A stretch of DNA of 64,000 nt from Thermoplasmata archaeon. GTDB lineage: Archaea > Thermoplasmatota > Thermoplasmata > RBG-16-68-12. The first letter of the stretch is position 1. Every line of letters begins with the position of its first letter. The notes beneath the pieces are model-generated. The model was not told where the DNA came from. It did not search any database and was given only the letters and a program-made list of their open reading frames with translations. The stretch lies in the NCBI GenBank assembly GCA_035636315.1, contig DASPZJ010000050.1, positions 34,831 to 98,830 of the forward strand. Direction: 5' to 3'. The position numbers were made by a program, and so were the translations under genes. Positions 3,927 through 52,072 of the stretch are shown here, one piece after another.

Positions 3927-4943
3927 TTACGCCTCGAGAATCGCAAGCGGATCGGCCGGCGTGAGCATGAACGCCTGCGCGTCCCGATACGCGCGCCAGA
4001 CGTCCTGGCAGGAGCACGAAAGGTCCCGGAAGTCGCGTCGCAGGCCGAGGGAGAACTCCTCGATCGCCTTCACGACGGCGCGGTCGCAGGAACGGCAGTT
4101 GTGGGCTCCGCGGGCCATCCCGCCCGCTGTCGGATGGCTCTTCACGTGCGCCTTCAGATCCTGCGTACGCTCCAGGACCTCGACGACGGACCACAGCCAT
4201 GGGGGCCGGTACTCGCCCCGCCGGAACAAACGGTCGACGATCGTTCGGCTCTGCACGTTGACCGGGTTGAAGGAGATCGTGTCGCTCTGCGCGTCCGCGT
4301 CGTGGCCGGATCGGACCGCGTCGTCGATCGCCTCCGATTCCGTGAGGAAGGGGGGCTTGATGAGCAGGTACGTCTTGATCGTCGCGCCGGCATCGCGCGC
4401 GAGCGCGGCCGCCCGCGCGTGTTCCTTGAGACCCCACACCTTGTTGACGGCATGCTTTAGCACGCGCTCGTCCGTCGACTCGAGGCCGAGGGCGATCTCC
4501 AGCTCATCGACGAAGCCCAGGGCGTGCTCCAACTGGTCCTTGCGCAGCAGGTGGGAGAGCGTCTCGACGATCACCTTGTCGCAGCGATCCCCGAGCTCCC
4601 TCAAGATCCGCGCGCGGACATCTGGCGGCACTTCGTGATCGTCGAAGAAGTTCCCCGAGGTGTACACCTTCACCATCGGCTGGCTCTCGTGCTTCCGAAG
4701 GACGACGTCGAGCTGGTGCAGCATATCCGCCGGCGCGACCTCCTGTGCGACGTCGTTCACATAGCCGCACATCGAGCATCCACTCGCCCGCGCCCAGTAG
4801 CAGCCCCGGGTGCGGAAGATGATGACCCAGGCGTCGACGACCTTCCCATGAAGGAGGTCTTTCTCCGTCCACGTCGAGATGTACTCCCTCGGGTCGAACT
4901 CCCGCGGACGTCGCTCGTCCTTCACGGCTTCTTGGAGGCGCAT
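3927..4943 (-). CDS. radical SAM superfamily protein, archaeal TIGR01210-like (possible archaeosine-pathway RaSEA-type enzyme)
   Basis: ORF 3927..5075. First 44 aa are low-complexity, so the start is probably M at 4943 (MRLQEAVKDE...). Contains RTRGCYWARASGCSMCGY (Cys triad with CX7CX2C spacing). Family assignment is from recollection of archaeal radical SAM families and is tentative. Confidence 0.5.
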   Translation of the reverse strand: MRLQEAVKDERRPREFDPREYISTWTEKDLLHGKVVDAWVIIFRTRGCYWARASGCSMCGYVNDVAQEVAPADMLHQLDVVLRKHESQPMVKVYTSGNFFDDHEVPPDVRARILRELGDRCDKVIVETLSHLLRKDQLEHALGFVDELEIALGLESTDERVLKHAVNKVWGLKEHARAAALARDAGATIKTYLLIKPPFLTESEAIDDAVRSGHDADAQSDTISFNPVNVQSRTIVDRLFRRGEYRPPWLWSVVEVLERTQDLKAHVKSHPTAGGMARGAHNCRSCDRAVVKAIEEFSLGLRRDFRDLSCSCQDVWRAYRDAQAFMLTPADPLAILEA

Positions 4944-4986
4944 GGAAGGCGGTTCGAACGTCGGGGGATGGGAAAACCTTTGCGGC

Positions 4987-6420
4987 TCACCGACGGTCCC
5001 GGACGGACGAGAGGCCAAGGATCGCTCCCCCGGCCACGAAGACGAACGCGAAGAAACGCAAGCCCCATGCGACATCGGGGGTGAGGACGACGCCCGTCTT
5101 GAACGTCAAGACCGCCGGGAGGTCAACCAGGGCCTCGTAGAGGACGAACAGCACGAGGCCGAGCGCGGCCAGTCCGATTCCGCTCCCCGGGCTTCGATGC
5201 CGATGCACCACCACGGCGGCGGGCTGGTAGACGGCGGGCCGGACCGCTCGTTCCGCCGTCACGGTCGCGGCGACCGGCATCGCCGCCCGTGCCGGCCGCG
5301 GGAGGTCCGCGGGTGCGTATCGACGGCACGAGTCGCACCACCATCGTTCGTATCGATCGATCCAGCGAAGGGTCGCGCCGCAGTTGGGGCAGGCGTTCTT
5401 CGCGCGCGCGACGGGCGAGTACGCACGGCAGGAGTAGCAATACCAGCGGTTGTACTGGGGGATGTAGGTGAGCTCGCGGCTGCATGTGGGGCACGGGTGC
5501 TCGACCTTCGGAATCTCGCGGACGGTGGGCGTCTCTTGGACGATGACCACGGGCTCCGCCGGACGGGCCGTCTCGGAGACCGGGGTTTCGACGATGACTT
5601 CCGGAGCGGCGGTCGTCACGGGAGCAACGGGCTCGGGGCTCTCTTCCGCGGCCGTCTCGATCGGTTCCTCCTGGGACGGTTCCTCCGACACCGGCGATTC
5701 GAAGACCAGATCGGACTCCTCGGCGACTTGGGGGATTTGCTCCGGGGCTTCGATCTCGGATTCCACGGTCGGCTCGTCCTCGGGATGGACTTCTTCCTCC
5801 ACTTCCTTTGACTCCGGCTCGAGTTCGTCGAGATAGCTCAGGAGTCTTCCACGGAGCTGCTCCTTCGTCCCGGTCGGGTCGAGTCCGTACGCCTTGCACA
5901 GCTCGATGAGCACGGGCTTCTTCGCTTGCCAGATCGACCTTCGCACCAGGGGTGGTTTTGATGAGGCCTCTCCGTCTGTCGGGACCTCCTCCGCTGTCGG
6001 CTCCGCAGGTGCCGAGGAAGGCTCCGTCGCGGGCTCGGTCGCAGGCTCCGGAGCGGGCTCGGTCGGTCCTTCGCTGGTCGTTTCGAGGACCGCACGCGGG
6101 ACTTCCTCAGGCTTCGAAGGCTCCTGGACAACGGCCTGATCGGACGGGTCGGCTTCAACCGCGGGCGCGATAACGGCTGGGTCGGGTTCCTGCTTCTCGG
6201 CCACCACTTCTTCGGGAGGGTAGGCGTTGCATCGGTAGCAGTAGTATCGTTCGTACGCCACGATGTACGACAGGACGCCGCCGCACGTGGGGCACGCCTT
6301 CGCACCGCGATCCCCGTACCCCTCGGGCGCGTACCGACCGCACGAGTAGCAATAGTACCGGTTGTACTGCTCGAGGAACGAGGTCTCGCTACCGCAGTTT
6401 GGACAAGGAAGGCCCGTCAA
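4987..6420 (-). CDS. membrane-anchored protein with four tandem zinc-ribbon modules, a SAP-like motif, Pro/Glu-rich linkers and C-terminal TM helices
   Basis: Four repeats of the form CP(N/T)CG...Y(I/L)xxY(N/E)R(Y/W)YCYxCxxY(A/S/P)P at residues ~5, ~42, ~303 and ~340. Contains KPVLIELCKAYGLDPTGTKEQLRGRLLSYL (SAP-like). Long Pro/Glu/Thr-rich acidic segments. C-terminal hydrophobic helices (GIGLAALGLVLFVLY..., FFAFVFVAGGAILGL). Confidence 0.6.
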   Translation of the reverse strand: MTGLPCPNCGSETSFLEQYNRYYCYSCGRYAPEGYGDRGAKACPTCGGVLSYIVAYERYYCYRCNAYPPEEVVAEKQEPDPAVIAPAVEADPSDQAVVQEPSKPEEVPRAVLETTSEGPTEPAPEPATEPATEPSSAPAEPTAEEVPTDGEASSKPPLVRRSIWQAKKPVLIELCKAYGLDPTGTKEQLRGRLLSYLDELEPESKEVEEEVHPEDEPTVESEIEAPEQIPQVAEESDLVFESPVSEEPSQEEPIETAAEESPEPVAPVTTAAPEVIVETPVSETARPAEPVVIVQETPTVREIPKVEHPCPTCSRELTYIPQYNRWYCYSCRAYSPVARAKNACPNCGATLRWIDRYERWWCDSCRRYAPADLPRPARAAMPVAATVTAERAVRPAVYQPAAVVVHRHRSPGSGIGLAALGLVLFVLYEALVDLPAVLTFKTGVVLTPDVAWGLRFFAFVFVAGGAILGLSSVRDRR

Positions 6421-6520
6421 GCAACCGTGCGGAGGCCGGGTGGCGCGAATAAAGGCTCTTCCGTGATTTTAGGAAATGATACTCTTCGCACCGCGCTCGG
6501 CCGAATCGCGCGCGAAAACG

Positions 6521-6552: not shown

Positions 6553-6625
6553 GCCACCATAGCTCAGTCGGTAGAGCAGCCGCCTTGTAAGCGGCAGGTC
6601 GGGAGTTCAATTCTCCCTGGTGGCT
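6553..6625 (+). tRNA. tRNA-Thr (anticodon UGU)
   Basis: Manual fold: acceptor GCCACCA/TGGTGGC; D-arm GCTC-AGTCGGTAG-AGC; anticodon stem GCCGC/GCGGC with loop CTTGTAA (anticodon TGT); variable loop AGGTC; T-arm GGGAG-TTCAATT-CTCCC; discriminator T. No encoded CCA. Falls inside the spurious ORF 6427..7080. Confidence 0.85.
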
Positions 6626-7089: not shown

Positions 7090-7498
7090 TCGGCATTGGC
7101 GGTACACTGCCTCGCACTTTGAGACTTCCTTTGCCGTGCGCCGGATTCCTGTGTCTGACTCCGCCGTCCGATAATCGCGCGAAAAGTGTTACGTACCTCG
7201 TCTTGTCGTATACCGTCTCGGCCGGTTGCGATGCGCCTGTTCCGCTCTCGTCGGTCAAAGATTGCCTCCGAAGGCGAGCCGGATCCTCATCGGATCCTCA
7301 CCGAGTACGTCCTGCACATGTCGATCACGTGCCTCGGCGACGAGGACGTGACGCCCCTCTATGAGGAGTACATCAAAGACTCGCGGCTCGGTCGATCGGA
7401 GCGTGAGGAGCTGACCCAGGTCTACCGCAGCCTCCTGCCGAGGTCGTCGTCCGGGCTCTCGGCGCGGTAGAGCGTTTCGTCCACCTGCGGTCCGCGTC

Positions 7499-7621
7499 TC
7501 AGCAGCACGCTTGGCTGACGTCGCGCGTCTCAGCAGAGCCCGCGCAGCATCCGCAGCCGCAGCAGCAGGGCCCGCAGCAGCAACAGGTGGTCGCATCAGA
7601 GGTCTTCGGTTGTGCGTTCAT
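7499..7621 (-). CDS. 40-aa cysteine-rich peptide (12 Cys) encoded by a GCA/TGC trinucleotide repeat
   Basis: Minus-strand ATG at 7621 preceded by GGGGGAG 8 nt upstream. Translation MNAQPKTSDATTCCCCGPCCCGCGCCAGSAETRDVSQACC, stop TGA. Coding status uncertain because the DNA is a (GCAGCA)n-type repeat. Not in the ORF track as a discrete ORF. Confidence 0.35.
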   Translation of the reverse strand: MNAQPKTSDATTCCCCGPCCCGCGCCAGSAETRDVSQACC

Positions 7622-7653
7622 GTTAGCTACTCCCCCAGAGTAGTAGTCAAGTT

Positions 7654-8655: not shown

Positions 8656-9042
8656 ATGCTTCAGCCCCAGGAATTGGTCGTCGCCAAGCTCCTGCCGACG
8701 ATCCGTGCGCGTCTCGCCCTCGAGCTCCTTCAAACCTATAAGATGAAGCAGGTCGACGTCGCTCGCTCGATGGCGATCACCCAGGCGGCCGTCAGCCACT
8801 ACAATACGCAGAGCCGCGGAGTTGACCAAGAGATGCTCCGACTGTTCCCGGAAATCAAGCCGTTCGTCCACGGGCTCGCCGAGCGGATTGCGCACGGCAT
8901 GACCCTGTCCGACCAGATCGCGAGCGTCAACGGGTTTTGTTCCGGCCTCATGCTGACCGCTCGTTTCTGCGAGTACCACAAGAGCCTCGGGGACATCGAC
9001 CCGCACTGCACGGCGTGCTTTCCGTCCCCGCCGAGACCCTAG
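8656..9042 (+). CDS. HTH (XRE/Cro-like) transcriptional regulator with C-terminal Cys cluster
   Basis: QVDVARSMAITQAAVSHYNTQSRG is a helix-turn-helix signature. C-terminus has CSGLMLTARFCEYH...DPHCTAC. A palindrome ACGGTTAAATACCGT (8597-8611) lies upstream. Confidence 0.5.
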   Translation: MLQPQELVVAKLLPTIRARLALELLQTYKMKQVDVARSMAITQAAVSHYNTQSRGVDQEMLRLFPEIKPFVHGLAERIAHGMTLSDQIASVNGFCSGLMLTARFCEYHKSLGDIDPHCTACFPSPPRP

Positions 9043-14912: not shown

Positions 14913-15239
14913 ATGTCCTTCCGGTGCCCGGAGTGCTACGCCGAACTCCCGGAGGACACGATGTGGGTGTGCCCCGTTTGCCGGTACACGCTGCGGACGC
15001 CGGGCGCCGCGAAGGTGGGGGTGGTGCTCATGGTCCTCGGACTCGTCCTCCTCGGCGCCTTCGTGTATGGACCGGACCAGCTCGGGCTCACCAACGGATT
15101 CGTCCCGACGGATTTGGCTCGGATGACGATCGCGAACTTCCCGTTGCTCGTGTTCGGCGCCTTCGCACTCGGTGCATTCCTCGTCGCGGCCGCGGCGCTG
15201 AAGATTCGGAGCGAGCAGGCCCGGGTCGCGTCGGCCTAG
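14913..15239 (+). CDS. small zinc-ribbon membrane protein (109 aa)
   Basis: MSFRCPECYAELPEDTMWVCPVCRYTL (CxxC...CxxC) followed by two hydrophobic helices. It is the only non-junk part of track ORF 13125..15239. Confidence 0.45.
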   Translation: MSFRCPECYAELPEDTMWVCPVCRYTLRTPGAAKVGVVLMVLGLVLLGAFVYGPDQLGLTNGFVPTDLARMTIANFPLLVFGAFALGAFLVAAAALKIRSEQARVASA

Positions 15240-20727: not shown

Positions 20728-23700
20728 ATGGACGAGAGCTATCGCGAGTGGCTATCCTCGATCCCCGGATGGACCGCGGACAAGGCGCAGAAGGTCGGGG
20801 AACGCTTCCCCACGTACGAGCTGCTGCGCGCGGCGAGCCGCGACGAGCTCTCGGCGATCGAAGGCCTCACGTCGGGCGAGGCGGACGCCCTATTCGGCCT
20901 GGTGCATGGCACCTCCGAGGGCGATGCGTCCGGCCATCTGTTCCTGTGCCCGGAATGCGGCTCCTTCGCTGGCGCGGGCGCGACGAAGTGCCCGTCGTGC
21001 GGCGTCGAATTCGGCGGCTCCGAAGATATCGCCGTCGGGAAGGAGCTCGACGCCTTCCTCGAGGACGAGGACGCGCCCGCTCGTATCTGTCTCTCGTGCG
21101 GCGCCGCGATGGCGAAAGGGGACGCGACCTGCGGCGTGTGCGGCCGCGAATATCGTAGGGAGGAACTCGCCCTCCTGCCCGGGCTCGATGGGAGCCTCGA
21201 CGAGGAAGCTCCGTTCTGCCCCCGCTGCGGGGCGTATCTCTTCGCGGACGAATCGGAGTGCGCGATCTGCGGCACGGCCCTGAACGCTCCAACGCCCCCG
21301 GTCACGAACGGGAAGGAGAAGGGCGTCGTGAAGGACTTCCTCAGCCGGTGGCAGCGGGTCGCGGACGCCACGGAGACCACGGAGGCGGAGCGGCTCCAGG
21401 AAGAGCTCGATCATTACGATCGGTTGCTGGAGGCGGACCCGACACTCGAGCGGGCGTGGGCGAAGCGCGCGAAGGTCCTCGAGAAACTCGGACGCCCCGC
21501 GGAGGCGGCGGAGTCCCTCGCGAAGGCCGGAGAGCTGAACCCGGCGCGCGAGGACCAGTACCGCGTCGAGGTCCAGGACGTGACGCGGACGAAGGAGGAC
21601 GTGCCCGTCCTGTCGCCGAAATGGCAGCAGCCCGTCGCGACGGCCGCGCCGAAAGCGCTCGATCCCCGACTCATCGAAGCGCTCGATCACTACGAATCCC
21701 TGTTGCGGGCGGACCCATCCCTCGCGGTCGCATGGCGCACGAAGGGCGAGATCCTGGAGCGACTCGGCCGCTCGGACGAATCGCGCGTCGCCCGCGAGCG
21801 AGCGGACCGGCTCGAACGCGACGAGGGTCGCGCCCTCCAGGCCGCCGCGGAAGGACTCCGGGCGCCGGGCCTCGCGTCCTCGGACCTCGCGGGCGGCGGC
21901 CGCATGAACGGCCGCGTCAGCGGCACGAAAGGGGGTCACACGAACGGCCGCACCAACGGCCACACGAACGGCCGCACGAACGGACGCGTGAACGGCCTGT
22001 CGGAGGGCCGCGTCAACGGCCTGACGACCGGCGCGGTGAACGGCCTAACGTTCGGGCACGGGGCGACGAACGGCCTCGTGAACGGGAACGGCTTCACGAA
22101 CGGCCGGCGGGGCCGCTACGGCACCCCGCGGATTCCGGCGCAGCCGCACTGGTCCCACTCCGTCGTGGGAATCGCCGCGGTCGTCGCCCTCATGGTGATC
22201 GTCCCGATCCTCGTGAGCTTCCTTTCTCCGTCCCCCGCCGGGCCGACCTCGATCATCCGGATCGACGGGGATTTCAGCGACTGGTCCAGGTTCCCGGCGT
22301 ACGCGGACTCGCCGACGGACGCGGTCCAGACGCCCGATGTCAACCTCGTCGCCATGAAGGTCGCGACGCAGGACCGGAACCTGTTCGTCGAGGCGCAGGT
22401 TCAGGGCCTCTTGTTCCAGGGCCCCGCCGCAAACCAGACGGGCAGCGTGTTCGTCTTCGTCGACGAAGACAACGACCGCACGACCGGGTACCCGATCGGC
22501 GACCTCGGCGCGGATTCCATGGTCGAGGTGTACGGATGGCGAGATGTGTCCGCGATCCAGCACGGCGTCTCGGCGTTCGCATTCAACGAGACGGGGGTGA
22601 CGCGCTCGAACGACTTCCGGCGGTTCCTGCCTAGCGGCTCCGCGGACGCCGCGTTCCTCGGCTCGCAGATCGAAATCCGAACGACCGTCCGGGATGCGAC
22701 GAGGGCGCGGGTCCTCGTCTACGCGGCGGACAACCTTGGCGGCCGGGACGCGGCGGATGGCTCCGTGCGTCCTTCCCTCCCGACGGTCGTCCTGGGCCAG
22801 CAGACGGTCGCGCCCGACATCGTCACGACGCCCCGGGCGGTCGTCCTGCGAGTGACGCTCGCGCCGCTCGGAGGCGCGCCCCATGTCACCGGGTTGAACC
22901 TCACGCGGGTGGGCGATTCGGCGGACCCGGTTGATGTGGCCCTGTATCGCGATGACGGGAGCGGCGCGCTCGATCCGGCGGATGCGTTCCTCTCGAACGC
23001 GTCGATGACCGCGAACGCCGTCAGCCTCGCGATGAACGAGAATCTCGCTGGGCCGGCGGTGTACTGGGTCGAAGCACGGTGGACGAACGTCACGCCGACG
23101 ACGACGTTCGGATTGACGGTGAGCGGAGTTGGCTCGAACGGCACCGCGAGCTTCCGAGCCCCCGAGACCGGGCTGGTCTACCTTGCTGCGGCACCGTCGA
23201 CGCTGAGAGTCGACGGCGCGTTCGGCGATTGGCGCGGTCAGATGTACGGTCAGGATCTCCTCGGCGACGTCACGAACCGAAGCGGCGCGACGGAATACGA
23301 CGCGAACGTGGACTTGCTCGCGACCGCAGTGAACGTGGCGGCGAACTTCACCGGATACGTTCGGGTGGACGGCCGCATGCTCGGAGGCCAAGACATCCCG
23401 ACCTCCCGCGAGCGGACGTACAATGCGCCCGTCGACACGGACCTCGACGGCGTGCCGGATTCGATCGAGACCCTCCTCGGCGCGGGCCTGTCCCAAGACT
23501 TCAACAACGACAACCGCACCGACGCGATGTCCGCGGGCGACGTGGACGGGGACGGCGTCATCGATTATCCCGCGGGCACCGACTGCTGGTTGAACACGAC
23601 GATCCCGGCATGGTATCCCGCGCCCTATGCGGGCCGAAGCGTGACGCGATTCATCTGCCCGATCGGACAGCCTCCCCAGGAGGGCGTGGACGTCGTGTAC

Positions 23701-25278
23701 GCGTACGTCGACGCCGACAACGCGACGAGCACCGGGCTCCTGTCCGACGTCGAAGGCCGGACGTACGGCTTCGACTACGCGATGGCGGTCATCGGTAGGA
23801 ACGGAGCGGTCAACTCGAGCGGCCTCTATGCCTTCGTGCCGGCTCGAGCGAACCCCTGGGCCCTCGTGCAGCCGATCGCCGTCGCGCTCGACGCGCATCG
23901 GATGGAATTCGCGGTGGACGCGAGCGCGCTGAACCTGGTCGCCGGGTACCGGGTCGTCTACTTCGCGTCGGACTGGCGGCTCGGATACGATGTCGCCCTG
24001 CCGGACGCCGCCGTCGCCCGCTTCCCGATCGCCGCGCAGGCCGCGACGAATCTCGTCATCAACGAGGTCTCGCCCCAGCCGAACGTGGAATGGGCGGAGA
24101 TCGCGAACCCGACGGCGAGCGCGGTCCCCCTGAACGGTTGGACCCTCGCAATCAACCACGGAAACAAGGCCGTCGTCGTCTACACGTTCTCCGGGACGAT
24201 CGGTGCCTGGGGATCCGGGCAGGAGTACCTCGCGGCCTTCTTGCCCGCGAACTCGCTCCCGAACGGCCAGACTCAATTGCTCCTCATGCAAGGGACCACG
24301 GTGATCGATGCGACAACGTACTCGTCGAACTCGGGCAGCGGCCGCACGTGGGCGCGGTTCAAGGACCCTGTGTCAGGCGTCCCTGCAGATACGAACAACG
24401 ATGCGGTGGACTTCTACCTCTCCTTGGCGCCCTCGTCCGGTCGCGCGAACGACCGCCACCGGCCGACGATCGCCCTCGCGAAGACCGCGAGCCGGGTCGT
24501 TGCGGCGCCGGGGGATCTCATCGTCTACACGTTGTATTACAACAACACGGACACGGGCATGGCGAAGTTCGTGTGGGTGAACGACACGCTCCCGGCGGGC
24601 GTTAGTTTTTCCTCGTCGAGCGTGCCGTACAATTCCGTCTCCGGTTCGACGTACGGGTGGGCCTTCACGAACGTGATGCCCGGCGCCCACGCCTTCACGG
24701 TCTCGGTACAGGTCACTGCCGCCACGGCGGATGGACAGGTGCTCCGCAACACGGCGACGTTGGATTACACGGATCAGCTGCGCCGGCCCCTTCCCCGGAG
24801 TCTCGGATGGGGGAACACGACCGTCGTACGACCGATGATCACGGTCGTCAAGATCGCCACGCCGTCGAACGCGAAACCGGGCGACCTGGTCACCTTCACG
24901 ATTTTCTACAACAACACGGGCTCCGTGGCGGCGGGAACGGTCACGATCAAGGACAGTTTCCCGAGCGGACTCGACTACGTCAGCGCGAGCCCGGCGGCAA
25001 CGTGGACGGACGGCCGGACGTTCTACTGGAACTTCACGAGCGTCGCACCGGGCGCCCATTCCCTCACGTTGATCGCGCGGGTGAACGCCAGCTTCTCGGG
25101 ATCGCAACTCGTCAACTGGGCGTTCCTGAATTACACGACGCCCGGAGGATTCCCGCTGATCGGGAGCAGTTCCTCGACGGTGGTGGCGATCCCGGAGCTC
25201 TCGGATATGATCTTCGTCGCGGCGGTCCCGTTGCTCATCATCGGGCTGAAAATCCGCGCGAAGCGGCGCGTCGAATAG
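20728..25278 (+). CDS. giant single-pass membrane protein: cytoplasmic HhH + 3 double-Zn-ribbons + TPR + (x-T/V-N-G)n repeat, TM, ~1000-aa extracellular domain with DUF11-like repeats, C-terminal PEF-CTERM-like anchor
   Basis: 1516 aa. N-terminal LSSIPGWTADKAQKVGERFPTYELLRAASRDELSAIEGLTSGEADAL (HhH-like). CPECGSF...CPSCGVEF, CLSCGAAM...CGVCGREY and CPRCGAYL...CAICGTAL are zinc ribbons. TPR-like helical repeats (ERAWAKRAKVLEKLGRPAEAAESLAKAGELNP...). NGRVSGTKGGHTNGRTNGHTNGRTNGRVNGL... repeat. TM helix SVVGIAAVVALMVIVPILVSFL. Many N-x-S/T sequons. C-terminal domains of the form ...YTLYYNNTDTG... and ...FTIFYNNTGSVAAGTVTIKD... (DUF11 / conserved-repeat-domain-like). Ends AIPELSDMIFVAAVPLLIIGLKIRAKRRVE (tripeptide + TM + basic tail). 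Confidence 0.8.
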   Translation: MDESYREWLSSIPGWTADKAQKVGERFPTYELLRAASRDELSAIEGLTSGEADALFGLVHGTSEGDASGHLFLCPECGSFAGAGATKCPSCGVEFGGSEDIAVGKELDAFLEDEDAPARICLSCGAAMAKGDATCGVCGREYRREELALLPGLDGSLDEEAPFCPRCGAYLFADESECAICGTALNAPTPPVTNGKEKGVVKDFLSRWQRVADATETTEAERLQEELDHYDRLLEADPTLERAWAKRAKVLEKLGRPAEAAESLAKAGELNPAREDQYRVEVQDVTRTKEDVPVLSPKWQQPVATAAPKALDPRLIEALDHYESLLRADPSLAVAWRTKGEILERLGRSDESRVARERADRLERDEGRALQAAAEGLRAPGLASSDLAGGGRMNGRVSGTKGGHTNGRTNGHTNGRTNGRVNGLSEGRVNGLTTGAVNGLTFGHGATNGLVNGNGFTNGRRGRYGTPRIPAQPHWSHSVVGIAAVVALMVIVPILVSFLSPSPAGPTSIIRIDGDFSDWSRFPAYADSPTDAVQTPDVNLVAMKVATQDRNLFVEAQVQGLLFQGPAANQTGSVFVFVDEDNDRTTGYPIGDLGADSMVEVYGWRDVSAIQHGVSAFAFNETGVTRSNDFRRFLPSGSADAAFLGSQIEIRTTVRDATRARVLVYAADNLGGRDAADGSVRPSLPTVVLGQQTVAPDIVTTPRAVVLRVTLAPLGGAPHVTGLNLTRVGDSADPVDVALYRDDGSGALDPADAFLSNASMTANAVSLAMNENLAGPAVYWVEARWTNVTPTTTFGLTVSGVGSNGTASFRAPETGLVYLAAAPSTLRVDGAFGDWRGQMYGQDLLGDVTNRSGATEYDANVDLLATAVNVAANFTGYVRVDGRMLGGQDIPTSRERTYNAPVDTDLDGVPDSIETLLGAGLSQDFNNDNRTDAMSAGDVDGDGVIDYPAGTDCWLNTTIPAWYPAPYAGRSVTRFICPIGQPPQEGVDVVYAYVDADNATSTGLLSDVEGRTYGFDYAMAVIGRNGAVNSSGLYAFVPARANPWALVQPIAVALDAHRMEFAVDASALNLVAGYRVVYFASDWRLGYDVALPDAAVARFPIAAQAATNLVINEVSPQPNVEWAEIANPTASAVPLNGWTLAINHGNKAVVVYTFSGTIGAWGSGQEYLAAFLPANSLPNGQTQLLLMQGTTVIDATTYSSNSGSGRTWARFKDPVSGVPADTNNDAVDFYLSLAPSSGRANDRHRPTIALAKTASRVVAAPGDLIVYTLYYNNTDTGMAKFVWVNDTLPAGVSFSSSSVPYNSVSGSTYGWAFTNVMPGAHAFTVSVQVTAATADGQVLRNTATLDYTDQLRRPLPRSLGWGNTTVVRPMITVVKIATPSNAKPGDLVTFTIFYNNTGSVAAGTVTIKDSFPSGLDYVSASPAATWTDGRTFYWNFTSVAPGAHSLTLIARVNASFSGSQLVNWAFLNYTTPGGFPLIGSSSSTVVAIPELSDMIFVAAVPLLIIGLKIRAKRRVE
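21904..22105 (+). repeat. tandem 12-nt repeat (consensus ACGAACGGCCGC) encoding the x-T/V-N-G peptide repeat
   Basis: ~16 imperfect units visible in sequence 21904-22105, inside the 20728..25278 CDS. Confidence 0.7.
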
Positions 25279-26129: not shown

Positions 26130-27095
26130 ATGGACGACGAACCGGCGCCGCGTGCGCCACCGGACGGGGGCTCCGAGCTGCCCCCGGACCGTTGCCCGAA
26201 TTGCGGGGGACCTCTGAAGTCCTTCTGGGACCAGCCCGAGGCCCTTTGCCCGGAGTGCCGGATCTTTGTCGAGATCCTGCGGGCCGGGAGCGTGAGGGGC
26301 TCTCCATCCGAGCCGGTGGCCGAAAGCCTCCATCACCGCTTGGGGCTTGCGAAATACCATCTGATGTCCGAAGAGCTCGACGAGGAAGATCTCGAGGACG
26401 AGCCGCAGAAGGTCGAGCTCGAGGCCGGGCCGCCGGAGCGATACCCGCCGGCGCCTCCCGCCGAGAGACTGCCGCCGGAGCCCGCCGCCGTCGAGGCTTC
26501 GGGGGCCACAGCCATCGCAGTCGACGACCGATCGACGGAGGGCGATCTAGAACCGCCCGAGCCGCCCGCGCCCGAGTCCGACGCATCGATCCCGACCGAG
26601 GATGACGAGACCCCGCCCGAACCGTTGCCGCAGCCCGAGATCACGGTCGAGGAGATTCCCCCGCCCACGGACGCGGAGGCTGCTCCGGAGGTCGAGGTCT
26701 ATGGCGAGCAAGGCTCGCAGCTCGTGATCGAAGAGCCCGTCGAACGAGTGCCGCGGTACCGAGAAGTCCCGCCGCTTCCGATGGCTCAGGCGGAATCGGT
26801 CCAGGCGGCCGGGCGGGTCTCGTCCACGCGCCCGTTGAGGCCCCGTCGGAGTCACAGGGTGATCTTCTACGCCGGCGGAGTCAACGTGGCCTTCGGCGGC
26901 GCGGTCCTCGTCTTCGGTTCGTTTCTCCACGACTTCTTCCGCGTCCCATTCATCGGTGAGTCGTACGGCGTGTTCGGGCCGCTGAACCTGTTCGCCGCCC
27001 AACTCGGCGCCATCTTCGTGGTCCTGGGAGTCGTCGCCATGACGGCCGCGGCGCGCCGAGGCCGCCGTCCGACCCGTCAGACCGCGGGAGGCTGA
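26130..27095 (+). CDS. zinc-ribbon / Pro-Glu-rich / C-terminal two-TM membrane protein
   Basis: MDDEPAPRAPP...RCPNCGGPLKSFWDQPEALCPECRIF (Zn ribbon), ~200 aa acidic P/E-rich linker, C-terminal helices VIFYAGGVNVAFGGAVLVFGSFL and LFAAQLGAIFVVLGVVAMTAA. Same architecture class as 4987..6420. Track ORF starts at 26022, but M at 26130 is the more plausible start. Confidence 0.55.
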   Translation: MDDEPAPRAPPDGGSELPPDRCPNCGGPLKSFWDQPEALCPECRIFVEILRAGSVRGSPSEPVAESLHHRLGLAKYHLMSEELDEEDLEDEPQKVELEAGPPERYPPAPPAERLPPEPAAVEASGATAIAVDDRSTEGDLEPPEPPAPESDASIPTEDDETPPEPLPQPEITVEEIPPPTDAEAAPEVEVYGEQGSQLVIEEPVERVPRYREVPPLPMAQAESVQAAGRVSSTRPLRPRRSHRVIFYAGGVNVAFGGAVLVFGSFLHDFFRVPFIGESYGVFGPLNLFAAQLGAIFVVLGVVAMTAAARRGRRPTRQTAGG

Positions 27096-27099
27096 GAGA

Positions 27100-29523
27100 G
27101 TGGACCCCGACCGTGGATCTCGAGGCCTCGTGAGCCATTCCGCGGCGGCTCCCCGCAATCCGAGTTCGTCCCGCGGATGGACGAACGGCGCCCGTGGCCG
27201 CACGAACGGATTGGTGGAGAGCCGCGGCCGGACGAACGGGCTCGTCCACGGGATCGGCTTCACGAACGGGGTCCGGCTTCGGCAGAGCAAGTACGGCATC
27301 GTGGCGCCGGCTGACTACCGTCGGGTCGTAGCCTTCATCGCTGCGTGCGTCCTCGTGATGGTCGTCCTCGGCTATTTCTTCGGCACCCCGGAGCCGTACC
27401 GGTCGCCCTTCGCGGTGGACGGCAACTTCTCCGAATGGGCGTCGGTGCCGACGTACACCGATCCGGTCGAGGCGCTCCCTGCGAGCGCGGACCTCATCGC
27501 CTTCAAGGTCCATGCGGAGCCGGGCCGGCTCTTCGTGTACGCGGAGACGGCAGGGCCGATCTTCCCCGGCACCGGGGTATCGAGCCTCTATCTCCTCATC
27601 GACGATCCGTCGAGGCGAGGATACACCGTCCAGGATCGCGACGTCGACTTCCTCGCCGAGGTGTGGGGATGGGGCGGGCAGGTCCGGGGAACGGTCGTCC
27701 GTCAGTGGACCGGAGATCCGGACCGGGACAACGCGACGGCGTTCCGCAGCAGCGGCGCGTTTGATGCGGCGTCTGCCGGATCGGAGGTCGAGTTGATGTT
27801 GACGGACACCCAGGTCGGTCTCGATTCCGTGCCGGGCTGGCGCTTTGCCCCTGCGGTGCGACTCGGAGACGACTTGGACATTGGAGCCACGGTCGGGCGG
27901 CCCCTTGGCGCGCTCGTCGTGGAACAAATTCCCCTGACGAGTTCGATCGCGTCGCCGACGCCCGTTCTCGAACTGCACCTCCAAGCCCTCGGAGGGAGCG
28001 TTGAGGTCCGCAGCTTCCTGTTCAACCACACCGGGGGAGGGACGATTCTCACGCCGGCGCTCCCGTTCATCGTCGCCGTGGGCCAGCCGCCGCGAGTCGT
28101 GCAAATCACCCTCGATCCGTCGGGCCTGCCCGCCGGTTCCTTCGTGTCGCTACGCCTCGTAGGCGCAGACGCCGTCGCGGCGGGAAGTTCGGACCCGGTT
28201 CCGGCCACCATCACCGAAGAAGGCGTTCGATTCTATGTGGGCCCGACGCCATCCGCCTATGTGGTCGACGGCCTGTTCGCCGAATGGACGACCCCGGTCT
28301 TGGATCCCGCCGATCCCCTCCCCGCCTCGATCGACCTGCGTGGGACGGCGTTCGCGGTCCCGGCCGACGCGTTCTTCTACGTTCACACGGCGGGGAGCAT
28401 CCTCGCAGGGGCGATCCTCCCCGAGCAGAGGACGATCCCCGTGGCAGCCGGAAACGGCACCCCGCCGGCGCCGCAACCACCTCGACGGAACGCCGCGGAG
28501 GACGTGCTGGACATCTATGTGGACACGGACAACCGCGACGCCGTCGGGATGGCGATCGGTGGCATCGTCGCGAACCGGTTCCTCGAGGTCCGCGGTCGGA
28601 ACGGGCGCGTCGCCTCCGCGACGCTGTATGCGTGGAACAATGTCACCTGGCGGTGGGACCCGAGCGTCGGGCGGTTCGATGTCGCCCTCGTCGGATCGGA
28701 GCTCGAGGCATCCGCCGACGCCGCTTTCTTCGGTCCGATGAACGGGTCGCGAGCCGTGTACGCGACGACGGACTGGACCCACCGGACCGACCTGACGGAC
28801 ATCCCGGCGCCGGCTTCGGCGCCAACTCTGAAGACCCAGGTTTCTCCGCTCCATTCGCCGGTGCCGGACGAGATCACGGCAACTTCCCTCGTCAACACTC
28901 CGGTCATCGACGGAATCTGTGGCACGTCCCCGGACGAGTACCTCGGGGCGAGCGTCGCGAGCAATCCTTCCATGAGTTTCGCCATCGGCCGGCGCGACGA
29001 CACTCAGTTCCTGTACGTATGCATCCATGTGACCCTCGATACGACAAAGAGCCCGAACGACTGGGACGAGGTGATCTTCGACACGAAGCACGACGGCGGA
29101 GGCGCCCCGCAGACCGACGACCGCCTCCTCTATGTGTTCGGAAATGGCGATACGACCGTCACGACATGGCAGGGGAACGGGGTGGGATGGGACGCCACTT
29201 GCGGCAGCTGCGATTCCGGGGATGCCGGCGCGAGCCGGTACGCCGGTGGCATTGAGAGCTACGAATTCAAGGTCCGCTACACGGACGTCTGGTCGACCCT
29301 CACCCCCTCTCCCGGCCAGACCGCGGGGTTCGCGATCATCGACTACGACTTCAACCTCGGCGTGCTGCACACCTGGGGCGGGCCCACGGTCGACGAGAAC
29401 ATCCCGGACACCTGGGGGCATGTGTTCTACCCGATTCCCGAGTTCCCGATGGTGGCCCTTGGCGTGCTTCCCGCGGTGCTTATCCCCCTCCTCCGGCGGC
29501 GCGGCCGACGCGCTGCGCGGTGA
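27100..29523 (+). CDS. surface protein paralogous to the extracellular part of 20728..25278; N-terminal TNG repeats, TM, C-terminal PEF-CTERM sorting signal
   Basis: 807 aa. TNGARGRTNGLVESRGRTNGLVHGIGFTNG repeats, TM AFIAACVLVMVVLGYFF. VDGNFSEWASVPTYTDP...LIAFKVHAEPGRLFVYAETAGPIF aligns with IDGDFSDWSRFPAYADSP...LVAMKVATQDRNLFVEAQVQGLLF of the 1516-aa protein. C-terminus IPEFPMVALGVLPAVLIPLLRRRGRRAAR. Confidence 0.75.
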   Translation: MDPDRGSRGLVSHSAAAPRNPSSSRGWTNGARGRTNGLVESRGRTNGLVHGIGFTNGVRLRQSKYGIVAPADYRRVVAFIAACVLVMVVLGYFFGTPEPYRSPFAVDGNFSEWASVPTYTDPVEALPASADLIAFKVHAEPGRLFVYAETAGPIFPGTGVSSLYLLIDDPSRRGYTVQDRDVDFLAEVWGWGGQVRGTVVRQWTGDPDRDNATAFRSSGAFDAASAGSEVELMLTDTQVGLDSVPGWRFAPAVRLGDDLDIGATVGRPLGALVVEQIPLTSSIASPTPVLELHLQALGGSVEVRSFLFNHTGGGTILTPALPFIVAVGQPPRVVQITLDPSGLPAGSFVSLRLVGADAVAAGSSDPVPATITEEGVRFYVGPTPSAYVVDGLFAEWTTPVLDPADPLPASIDLRGTAFAVPADAFFYVHTAGSILAGAILPEQRTIPVAAGNGTPPAPQPPRRNAAEDVLDIYVDTDNRDAVGMAIGGIVANRFLEVRGRNGRVASATLYAWNNVTWRWDPSVGRFDVALVGSELEASADAAFFGPMNGSRAVYATTDWTHRTDLTDIPAPASAPTLKTQVSPLHSPVPDEITATSLVNTPVIDGICGTSPDEYLGASVASNPSMSFAIGRRDDTQFLYVCIHVTLDTTKSPNDWDEVIFDTKHDGGGAPQTDDRLLYVFGNGDTTVTTWQGNGVGWDATCGSCDSGDAGASRYAGGIESYEFKVRYTDVWSTLTPSPGQTAGFAIIDYDFNLGVLHTWGGPTVDENIPDTWGHVFYPIPEFPMVALGVLPAVLIPLLRRRGRRAAR
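27178..27270 (+). repeat. degenerate ACGAACGG-type repeat encoding TNG units
   Basis: acgaacggcgcccgtggccgcacgaacggattg...cggacgaacgggctcgtccacgggatcggcttcacgaacgggg. Same nucleotide unit as 21904-22105. Confidence 0.5.
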
Positions 29524-51835: not shown

Positions 51836-52072
51836 TCAGAGGGGGTTCTTGCATCGCGCGCACACGAGGCGGCAGTCCTTCTTGCATTCGAGGCAGGTCC
51901 CGTGCAGGAACCGCTCTCGCACGGGCGCGTGGTGGCAATCGCTCACGGCGGTGACCATGTGCCCGCAGTAGTCGCAGAGGTGCTGGACCGGCTTCTTGCC
52001 GGCGACGTACCGCTGGTACGCCATCAGGATCGCGAGGACGAGCACGAGCGCCCCGATGATCAGGCCGACCAT
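51836..52072 (-). CDS. small membrane-anchored Cys-rich (zinc-finger-like) protein, 78 aa
   Basis: MVGLIIGALVLVLAILMAYQRY (TM) then CDYCGHMVTAVSDCHH...CLECKKDCRLVCARC. Confidence 0.35.
   Translation of the reverse strand: MVGLIIGALVLVLAILMAYQRYVAGKKPVQHLCDYCGHMVTAVSDCHHAPVRERFLHGTCLECKKDCRLVCARCKNPL

Follow-up and report, generated by a model that had tools for sequence, protein, structure and literature searches.

We analyzed a 64,000-nucleotide stretch of contig DASPZJ010000050.1 from a Thermoplasmata archaeon (the window) and examined one open reading frame (ORF) in it, at 4987..6420 on the minus strand, whose product we call the target. The target carries two pairs of zinc ribbons, a SAP domain between them and a C-terminal membrane hairpin, joined by long acidic linkers (Table 1). 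Codon-position GC values (0.69/0.52/0.79 at positions 1/2/3) are typical for genes of the window, which has approximately 66% G+C, and the N-terminus M-x-x-L-P-C-P is common to homologues with ATG, GTG or TTG starts. Upstream of the TTG lies a TATA-like box that resembles a box conserved, in the 20 loci compared, upstream of the neighboring gene RaSEA; its distance from the start codon suggests a leaderless transcript. The ORF represents a genuine, well-conserved and uncharacterized Thermoplasmata family, and its novelty lies in the combination of known domain types, not in a new kind of system.

Domain anatomy of the target

We modeled the target with AlphaFold2 from a 48-sequence alignment. 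The model has four confident parts (two ribbon doublets, the SAP segment and a helical hairpin), with three segments between them at a predicted local distance difference test (pLDDT) score below 50. An earlier note, made from the letters of this DNA and its ORF translations, had described four zinc ribbons, a SAP-like motif, Pro/Glu-rich linkers and a C-terminal membrane anchor, and most of this description was borne out.

The 16 cysteines of the target are regularly patterned, and all four proposed ribbons are modeled as Cys4 beta-hairpins, with a pLDDT of approximately 90 when the full-length target is modeled and of 83 when the doublet is modeled by itself. A stack of 191 modules, drawn from 48 members of the family, gave a 31-residue consensus, x-P-C-P-[TN]-C-G-x-x-L-x-[YFW]-[IVL]-x-Q-Y-x-R-[WYH]-[YW]-C-[YD]-x-C-x-x-Y-A-P. 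All 16 cysteines are invariant in the 48 aligned sequences, which is partly by construction, the sequences having been picked for eight intact CxxC pairs. In a broader set of 876 modules from 262 proteins, the fourth ligand position is Cys in 791, Glu in 64, Asp in 16 and another residue in 5 (Cys, Glu or Asp in 871 of 876). Of the 85 modules that lack the fourth Cys, 80 thus have Glu or Asp in its place. That the lost Cys is almost always exchanged for another metal ligand supports real metal sites in the ribbons, and the replacements suggest that a Cys3-carboxylate variant of the site exists. Three relatives (P0125, P0127 and P0128) have the pattern YC-x-x-E/D in most of their modules. By sequence and model, each module of the target is an ordinary Cys4 zinc ribbon that would be expected to bind zinc.

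The N-terminal and C-terminal double ribbons are 41–51% identical across the family, far above chance, which indicates that the target arose by duplication of a double-ribbon unit. The membrane-proximal doublet (modules 3 and 4) is basic, with a net charge of +4.

No Pfam model specifically describes this aromatic ribbon module. Residues 5–66 match PF07191 (Zn_ribbon_6/YfgJ-like) at 32.7 bits against a gathering score of 25. YfgJ structures were not among the matches listed (60 of 92) for the doublet profile against solved structures, and the Pfam match may be driven by cysteine spacing rather than by orthology. The other Pfam matches of the ribbons are to generic zinc ribbons and are all below threshold. 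The closest solved sequences are those of the ribosomal proteins eS31/S27a and uS14 (E of about 1e-3), with the shared pattern CP.CG......Y.R.YC..C; the corresponding models score below their cut-offs, PF01599 (eS31/S27a) at 21.5 bits against 22.3 and NCBIfam NF001669 (S27ae) at 20 against 54. We rejected a ribosomal or translational role deduced from this similarity, the eS31 and uS14 matches being marginal and below the cut-offs. When the modeled doublet was compared with the PDB using Foldseek, the top sub-threshold matches were TFS4, Rpb9/RPA12, the Pyrococcus abyssi RPA ribbon on single-stranded DNA, an archaeal ribosomal ribbon and HVO_2753, all generic ribbons; T7 primase was another generic ribbon that came up in the searches with the doublet and the whole model. 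The nearest solved ribbons by sequence or fold, weak matches as they are, all contact nucleic acid (eS31/uS14, P. abyssi RPA with single-stranded DNA, TFS4).

The SAP-like segment passed both the profile searches and the fold search. In isolation it matches Pfam SAP (PF02037) at 28.5 bits, above the gathering score of 23.9, while the whole protein scores 23.6, just under it; all 27 family segments tested match the same model, with a best E of 4.5e-11. A profile of the segment matches the solved SAP domains of Hcc-1/SARNP (E 0.005), MKL1 and Ku70. The segment is modeled at a pLDDT of 94–96, with helices at residues 168–177 and 186–209, and Foldseek places it on 3'hExo with a root-mean-square deviation of 0.8–1.1 Å and on nucleosome-bound DEK with one of 1.3–1.4 Å (probability 0.97–0.99). 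The canonical G-x-K and R-L-L positions of SAP domains (G184, T185, R192, L193, L194) are invariant in the family. Judged from profiles and model alike, the segment is a genuine SAP domain. We give little weight to the remark in the earlier note that SAP motifs are typically eukaryotic, since NCBI lists homologues from archaea under the name "SAP domain-containing protein" and domains of the SAP clan recur together with the ribbon module in other prokaryotic architectures.

The Pro/Glu-rich linkers of the earlier note are two in number, acidic and disordered in the model (pLDDT below 50). Across the family they keep their composition (17–19% Pro, 17–18% Asp plus Glu, 16–18% Ala) and vary in length.

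The membrane anchor at the C-terminus is present as well, but it is not a single segment: by the model it is a hairpin of two transmembrane (TM) helices in the cytoplasmic membrane. The helices, at residues 411–438 and 448–476 with a pLDDT of 93–96, coincide with the only hydrophobic stretches of the target, and 6 residues follow the second. No N-terminal signal sequence was found, the maximal hydropathy being −0.26 over the first 30 start positions of the hydropathy window. Lys and Arg residues number 4 (plus 2 His) before the first helix, 1 in the loop and 3 in the tail. With basic residues on both outer sides of the hairpin, both termini are predicted to be cytoplasmic, which would place approximately 400 residues in the cytoplasm. 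The Cys4 sites and the fusions of the module to cytoplasmic kinases, a Ras-family GTPase, the C-terminal tail of an MMPL transporter and PRC barrels (see below) agree with this placement. The topology check called for in the earlier note therefore puts the ribbons and the SAP domain on the cytoplasmic side, along with all of the target except the loop of 9 residues. A conserved juxtamembrane motif, HRHxSPGxGxGL, stands at the start of the hairpin.

Table 1. Positions of the target's parts, of its conserved neighbor and of related architectures. Positions refer to the window unless a locus is named; L and P numbers label loci and proteins.
Feature	Positions	Strand	Residues	Remarks
Whole coding sequence	4987..6420	(-)		477 aa; TTG start at 6420, stop codon 4987-4989
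Putative TATA-like box, gCCTTTATTcg (GCCTTTATTCG)	6448..6453	(-)		28-33 nt upstream of target TTG; read from sequence
Zinc-ribbon module 1, LPCPNCGSETSFLEQYNRYYCYSCGRYAPEG	6319..6411	(-)	4-34	Cys 6, 9, 24, 27
Zinc-ribbon module 2, KACPTCGGVLSYIVAYERYYCYRCNAYPPEE	6208..6300	(-)	41-71	Cys 43, 46, 61, 64
Disordered acidic Pro/Glu/Ala-rich linker 1	5956..6207	(-)	72-155	net charge -17; family length 53-133 aa
SAP (helix-extended-helix) domain and flanking helices	5806..5955	(-)	156-205	invariant R160, K168, L171, G184, T185, R192, L193, L194
Disordered acidic linker 2	5506..5805	(-)	206-305	net charge -26; family length 68-160 aa
Zinc-ribbon module 3, HPCPTCSRELTYIPQYNRWYCYSCRAYSPVA	5407..5499	(-)	308-338	Cys 310, 313, 328, 331
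Zinc-ribbon module 4, NACPNCGATLRWIDRYERWWCDSCRRYAPAD	5305..5397	(-)	342-372	Cys 344, 347, 362, 365
Conserved juxtamembrane motif, HRHRSPGSGIGL	5170..5205	(-)	406-417	H406, H408, P411, G414, G416, L417 at least 90% conserved
TM helix 1	5107..5190	(-)	411-438	
Loop between TM helices	5080..5106	(-)	439-447	9 residues; sole part predicted outside the cell
TM helix 2 and basic tail ...VRDRR	4990..5079	(-)	448-477	
RaSEA, archaeosine radical-SAM enzyme, conserved downstream neighbor	3927..4943	(-)		TIGR01210, 336 bits; ATG at 4943, 43 nt past target stop
Split-gene examples	L043 6127..7143; L050 5953..7104; L062 262..1299			P0269-P0285
Module architecture: soluble, 5-9 modules on acidic or Lys-rich linkers				
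Module architecture: ribbons and TM hairpin, without SAP				
Module architecture: SAP, two ribbons and TM hairpin				
Module architecture: Ser/Thr kinase with 3-4 modules				Pkinase E 1e-37 to 1e-39
Module architecture: C-terminal tail of MMPL/RND transporter with 6 modules				
Module architecture: VWA domain with one module				
Module architecture: Ras-family GTPase with one module	L076 4924..6213			Bathyarchaeia; joined by long acidic linker
Module architecture: N-terminal PRC barrel, Pro/Ala/Gln-rich linker, 1-2 modules	L051, L053, L054, L057-L059, L070, L075, L077-L080, L083			small proteins of Desulfurococcales, Thermoproteales, Bathyarchaeia, Caldarchaeum
Module architecture: soluble, N-terminal ARMET_C-type (SAP-clan) segment, long helical region, 4-6 modules				ARMET_C 27.0 and 23.8 bits against cut-off 23.5
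Module architecture: bacterial protein with coiled coil, SAP-like segment, one module				

The family, its surroundings and other carriers of the module

Searching 5.8 billion clustered proteins returned 194 matches to the target, nearly all full-length, at 40–92% identity and 420–550 residues. All of them come from metagenomes or metagenome-assembled genomes (MAGs) and are named "hypothetical", "SAP domain-containing protein [Thermoplasmata archaeon]", or by generic JGI zinc-ribbon or ribosomal-protein labels; the protein searches and cluster look-up for a cultured or characterized homologue yielded MAG and metagenome proteins only, and a literature search found no experimental paper on this archaeal family of SAP and zinc-ribbon proteins. 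Approximately 120 listed homologues share one layout, with four N-terminal and four C-terminal CxxC pairs, the SAP domain between them, the HRH motif, two TM helices and an RDRR end. The nearest relative, from Thermoplasmata archaeon SMAG_U11571, is 90% identical. Across a set with one genome for each GTDB species, relatives are encoded at 330 loci. Only uncultured Thermoplasmata have the full architecture, in MAGs labeled Thermoplasmata, Methanobacteriota, Euryarchaeota RBG_16 or Methanomassiliicoccales.

Family variants have 2–3 ribbons before the SAP domain and 1–4 after it. One Thermoplasmata clade divides the architecture between two adjacent genes, for a three-ribbon protein of approximately 100–140 residues and a protein of approximately 235 residues with SAP, ribbon and TM hairpin. 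This split recurs in many MAGs and is therefore not a sequencing error. The homologue P0011 has an N-terminal extension (…AALPTELWWRG…) that resembles read-through of the antisense strand of a tRNA gene like the tRNA-Thr(UGU) gene near the target (see below), and P0062 likewise has a long N-terminal extension; both are probable start-site mis-annotations in public data.

Downstream of the target lies RaSEA, followed by DUF5611 and then, on the opposite strand, the genes for ribosomal P1, L10 and L1. The longest RaSEA ORF starts at 5075 and would overlap the 3' end of the target gene by 89 nt; homologues and the TIGR01210 alignment favor the ATG at 4943. The same order on the same strand, with a gap of 46–83 nt, is kept in 38 of 43 loci and holds where the target is only 24–28% identical, while in the other five loci different DNA separates the two genes. 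The intergenic gap (4944..4986 in the window; 43–60 nt) contains a conserved AAA[GC][GC]TTTT[TA] box approximately 30 nt upstream of the RaSEA ATG, as well as a conserved TTCGA motif at about −15, both in 20 loci that include very distant relatives. The box is probably RaSEA's own BRE/TATA-like promoter, giving a leaderless mRNA, and the T-run of the gap may terminate the target's transcript too. The block is syntenic down to L1/L10/P1 and looks vertically inherited. Given the box and the synteny of the whole block, the adjacency is real but does not establish co-transcription or shared function, and we set aside an operon with RaSEA as functional evidence. One 743-residue public protein, P0045, consists of the target, broken in the middle of the second TM helix, fused to the middle of RaSEA, with no contig on record. 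This protein probably stems from a chimeric assembly, or one with a deletion, and not from a real fusion, and it independently mirrors the conserved adjacency.

On the other side, the opposite strand carries a tRNA-Thr(UGU) gene (6553..6625, plus strand) at a distance of 133 nt upstream. An ORF for 128 residues at 8656..9042 (plus strand) matches no Pfam or NCBIfam family, yet by tblastn most related loci have it conserved upstream of the target. In locus L002 the target homologue has an Arf/Ras-family GTPase gene (7096..7647) directly upstream, on the opposite strand. The window also codes for the PolD large subunit, TrmB and a Cdc48-type ATPase, and these genes, together with L1, L10, P1 and RaSEA, mark it as archaeal.

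The earlier note had further grouped the target with genes at 26130..27095, 14913..15239 and 51836..52072 as a class that the organism had expanded. These three genes do share a generic layout of CxxC pairs and TM segments, but the module profile, run against all six frames of the window, matched the target alone even at E<=10, and BLASTP of the target against the first two found weak similarity at the level of CxxC pairs only. Within this window, an expansion of the class is thus not supported by homology. The gene at 26130..27095 (plus strand, 321 aa), which lacks SAP and any detectable homology to the target, nevertheless follows the target's overall plan, with a single CPNCG...CPEC ribbon, then a long acidic linker of Pro and Glu, a patch of basic residues, a TM hairpin and an RRGRR tail. 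An 807-aa ORF without Pfam match (27100..29523, plus strand) comes next. The product of 14913..15239 (plus strand, 108 aa) has a zinc ribbon and two TM helices; its gene abuts that of the PolD large subunit, and its position beside PolD DP2 is conserved in distant relatives (tblastn; L001, L002, L028). A further gene at 20728..25278 (plus strand) codes for 1516 aa with an N-terminal double zinc ribbon (DZR), TPR repeats, a lamin-tail domain and DUF11 repeats; this large product probably belongs to the envelope, with its ribbon in the cytoplasm.

The module itself extends well beyond the family. Run against 1.84 billion cluster representatives, the doublet profile matched 925 proteins at E<=1e-3 and 222 at E<=1e-10, in the architectures collected in Table 1. 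PF05239 (PRC barrel) scored above its gathering score in all eight Thermoproteota module proteins tested, with the module C-terminal to the barrel; we found no description of this architecture, and a link of these proteins to archaeal division proteins is possible. Together the sequences suggest that the aromatic module is a mobile, cytoplasmic and often multivalent archaeal add-on, joined to a SAP-type domain more than once. With hundreds of representatives, this 31-residue ribbon is a distinct repeat, and defining its ligand would annotate many archaeal "hypothetical" proteins at once.

Possible functions

We propose, as a tentative reading that falls a little short of an even chance, that the target is a membrane-anchored multivalent tether in which the SAP domain contacts nucleic acid, with chromosomal DNA the most likely ligand, and the ribbons add further contacts. 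The TM hairpin, both ends inside, would fix the target in the cytoplasmic membrane, with HRHxSPGxGxGL at the inner face. From the membrane into the cytoplasm would follow the basic double ribbon, an acidic linker of approximately 100 residues, the SAP domain, an acidic linker of approximately 85 residues and, at the far end, the second double ribbon. Like SAP/HeH domains of other proteins, the SAP domain would engage nucleic acid, in this case most likely the DNA of the nucleoid, and the four aromatic ribbons could add multivalent contacts of their own, with nucleic acid or with a single shared partner in the cell. The acidic linkers would be flexible spacers, giving the heads a search range of tens of nanometers from the membrane. 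In this way the chromosome, or else a nucleoprotein or division assembly, would be kept at the membrane.

Nucleic-acid binding by the target is plausible by analogy with proteins of the same domain type, and several observations weigh against the tether. The protein as a whole has a pI of 4.6 and a net charge of −31, which opposes non-specific nucleic-acid binding outside the folded heads, and the distal ribbon doublet, at the N-terminus, carries no net charge. RNA is a ligand of SAP domains too, as for that of 3'hExo, the best structural match, and other SAP domains serve as protein-interaction modules. Foldseek against the PDB, with the whole model and with the isolated doublet, gave no ribbon match at E<=1e-3 from which a function could be transferred. 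The fusion partners of the module (PRC barrel, kinase, GTPase, transporter) suit protein targeting at least as well as nucleic-acid binding.

This last point leads to another explanation, possible though on the unlikely side, in which the target is a membrane-anchored scaffold for protein recruitment, perhaps in division or the cytoskeleton. The ribbons would bind one common partner and the SAP domain would link the chromosome, coupling the nucleoid to division or excluding division over it. The occurrence of the module on Ser/Thr kinases, a Ras-family GTPase, a VWA protein and a transporter tail is the pattern of a localization or adaptor domain, and the soluble proteins with 5–9 modules on flexible linkers are like multivalent scaffolds. 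The PRC barrels that precede the module in Thermoproteota also fit: the PRC-barrel proteins CdvA and CdpB act in archaeal cell division, and several Thermoplasmata lack SepF and PRC-barrel proteins (PMC11188069). However, PRC barrels are common in proteins unrelated to division, and neither the window nor the related loci have an FtsZ, SepF or Cdv gene near the target.

We consider it unlikely that the target is an RNA-binding protein, tethering ribosomes, tRNA or mRNA to the membrane. Ribbons like those of eS31/S27a and uS14, a SAP fold closest to the stem-loop-binding domain of 3'hExo, and the conserved position next to the tRNA-modification gene RaSEA and the L1/L10/P1 genes all favor it, as does the label "RNA-binding Zn-ribbon protein involved in translation" that JGI gives some members. 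Yet the ribosomal matches are marginal; RaSEA has its own promoter-like box right after the target's stop codon; and block synteny is expected from vertical descent, with five loci having other DNA between the genes. The JGI label probably stems from the generic CPxCG pattern: PF07754 (DUF1610/HVO_2753), the Pfam counterpart of that label, is absent from the 23 Pfam families listed for the target at E<=10.

A membrane-sequestered transcription regulator, freed by proteolysis within a linker, would also join a domain of DNA-binding type to an anchor through long, disordered and protease-accessible segments, and the two-gene split in one clade implies that the parts can work as separate chains. 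We find this improbable: the target has no sensor domain and only 9 residues outside the membrane, there is no site-2 or rhomboid protease among the conserved neighbors, and SAP domains are not known to act as sequence-specific regulators. An extracellular Cys-rich protein with its CxxC pairs as disulfides, a reading that the regular pattern of 16 cysteines might invite, we reject as barely tenable, given the missing signal peptide, the positive-inside counts that place the N-terminal part in the cytoplasm, the cytoplasmic fusion partners of the module, the exchange of lost cysteines for Glu or Asp, which are metal ligands that cannot form disulfides, and the fact that Foldseek against the PDB matched none of the extracellular Cys-rich folds that the earlier note had raised as a counter-explanation.

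We return to the nucleoid-membrane tether as the preferred reading. In its most far-reaching form, which is speculative and quite unlikely to hold in full, it would follow the logic of HeH/LEM proteins; the module would be an unnamed, widespread archaeal targeting domain that plugs PRC-barrel factors, kinases, GTPases and transporters into one structure; and in Thermoplasmata without SepF or PRC-barrel proteins the target could couple the chromosome to the division site or the envelope. For the positioning and segregation of the archaeal chromosome relative to the membrane, we know of no integral-membrane DNA tether described so far. The target is a concrete, testable candidate, and DNA tethering or a link to division, if true, would raise the importance of the family.

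Comparison with known systems

Each part of the target has counterparts among known proteins. Generic double ribbons (PF07191/YfgJ-like, DZR PF12773 and C(P)XCG proteins such as HVO_2753, itself among the weak structural matches) likewise have two consecutive Cys4 ribbons with CPxCG knuckles, but the target's module has its own signature, L-x-[YFW]-[IVL]-x-Q-Y-x-R-[WYH]-[YW]-C ... Y-A-P, which alone recruits the 925 representatives. The protein context of the target is entirely unlike that of eS31 (S27a/S27ae) or uS14. With the SAP proteins of PF02037 (Ku70, SARNP/Hcc-1, DEK, MKL1, 3'hExo, Tho1) the target shares the signature L..L...L...GL...G.K..L..RL and the fold; the characterized SAP proteins known to us are all soluble proteins of the nucleus or nucleoid, none of them with a TM hairpin or repeated zinc ribbons. 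The division proteins CdvA and CdpB are built on PRC barrels, and the target has no PF05239 match, which among the proteins compared is found only in distant Thermoproteota module proteins. Bacterial Noc, a ParB-like CTPase with an amphipathic membrane-binding helix, binds both DNA and membrane and connects the nucleoid with the envelope and with the control of division. Its likeness to the target is conceptual only; the folds are unrelated, and homology is not expected, nor was any found.

The closest parallel in design is with the HeH/LEM proteins (Lem2/Heh1 and Man1/Heh2; MSC family), and SAP is in the same Pfam clan as the HEH fold. Like them, the target combines a HeH-type domain, a long disordered region and two TM segments, with both termini predicted on the DNA side. 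In Lem2 and Man1, which have an HEH domain and two TM segments, both ends face the chromatin, and these proteins fasten it to the inner nuclear membrane (PMC3337167). The differences are in the details of construction. The HeH-type domain of the target is internal, where theirs is N-terminal, and is flanked by four zinc ribbons absent from LEM proteins; the loop between its TM helices has 9 residues and is not a lumenal domain; and in place of the C-terminal MSC winged-helix domain it has only the short tail after the second helix, with no PF09402 match. Beyond the small SAP motif, no sequence homology between the two was detected. By analogy, then, the target is a counterpart of HeH/LEM proteins in design and proposed function and not a member of their family, and it gives the tethers that join chromatin to membrane in the eukaryotic nuclear envelope a parallel among prokaryotes.

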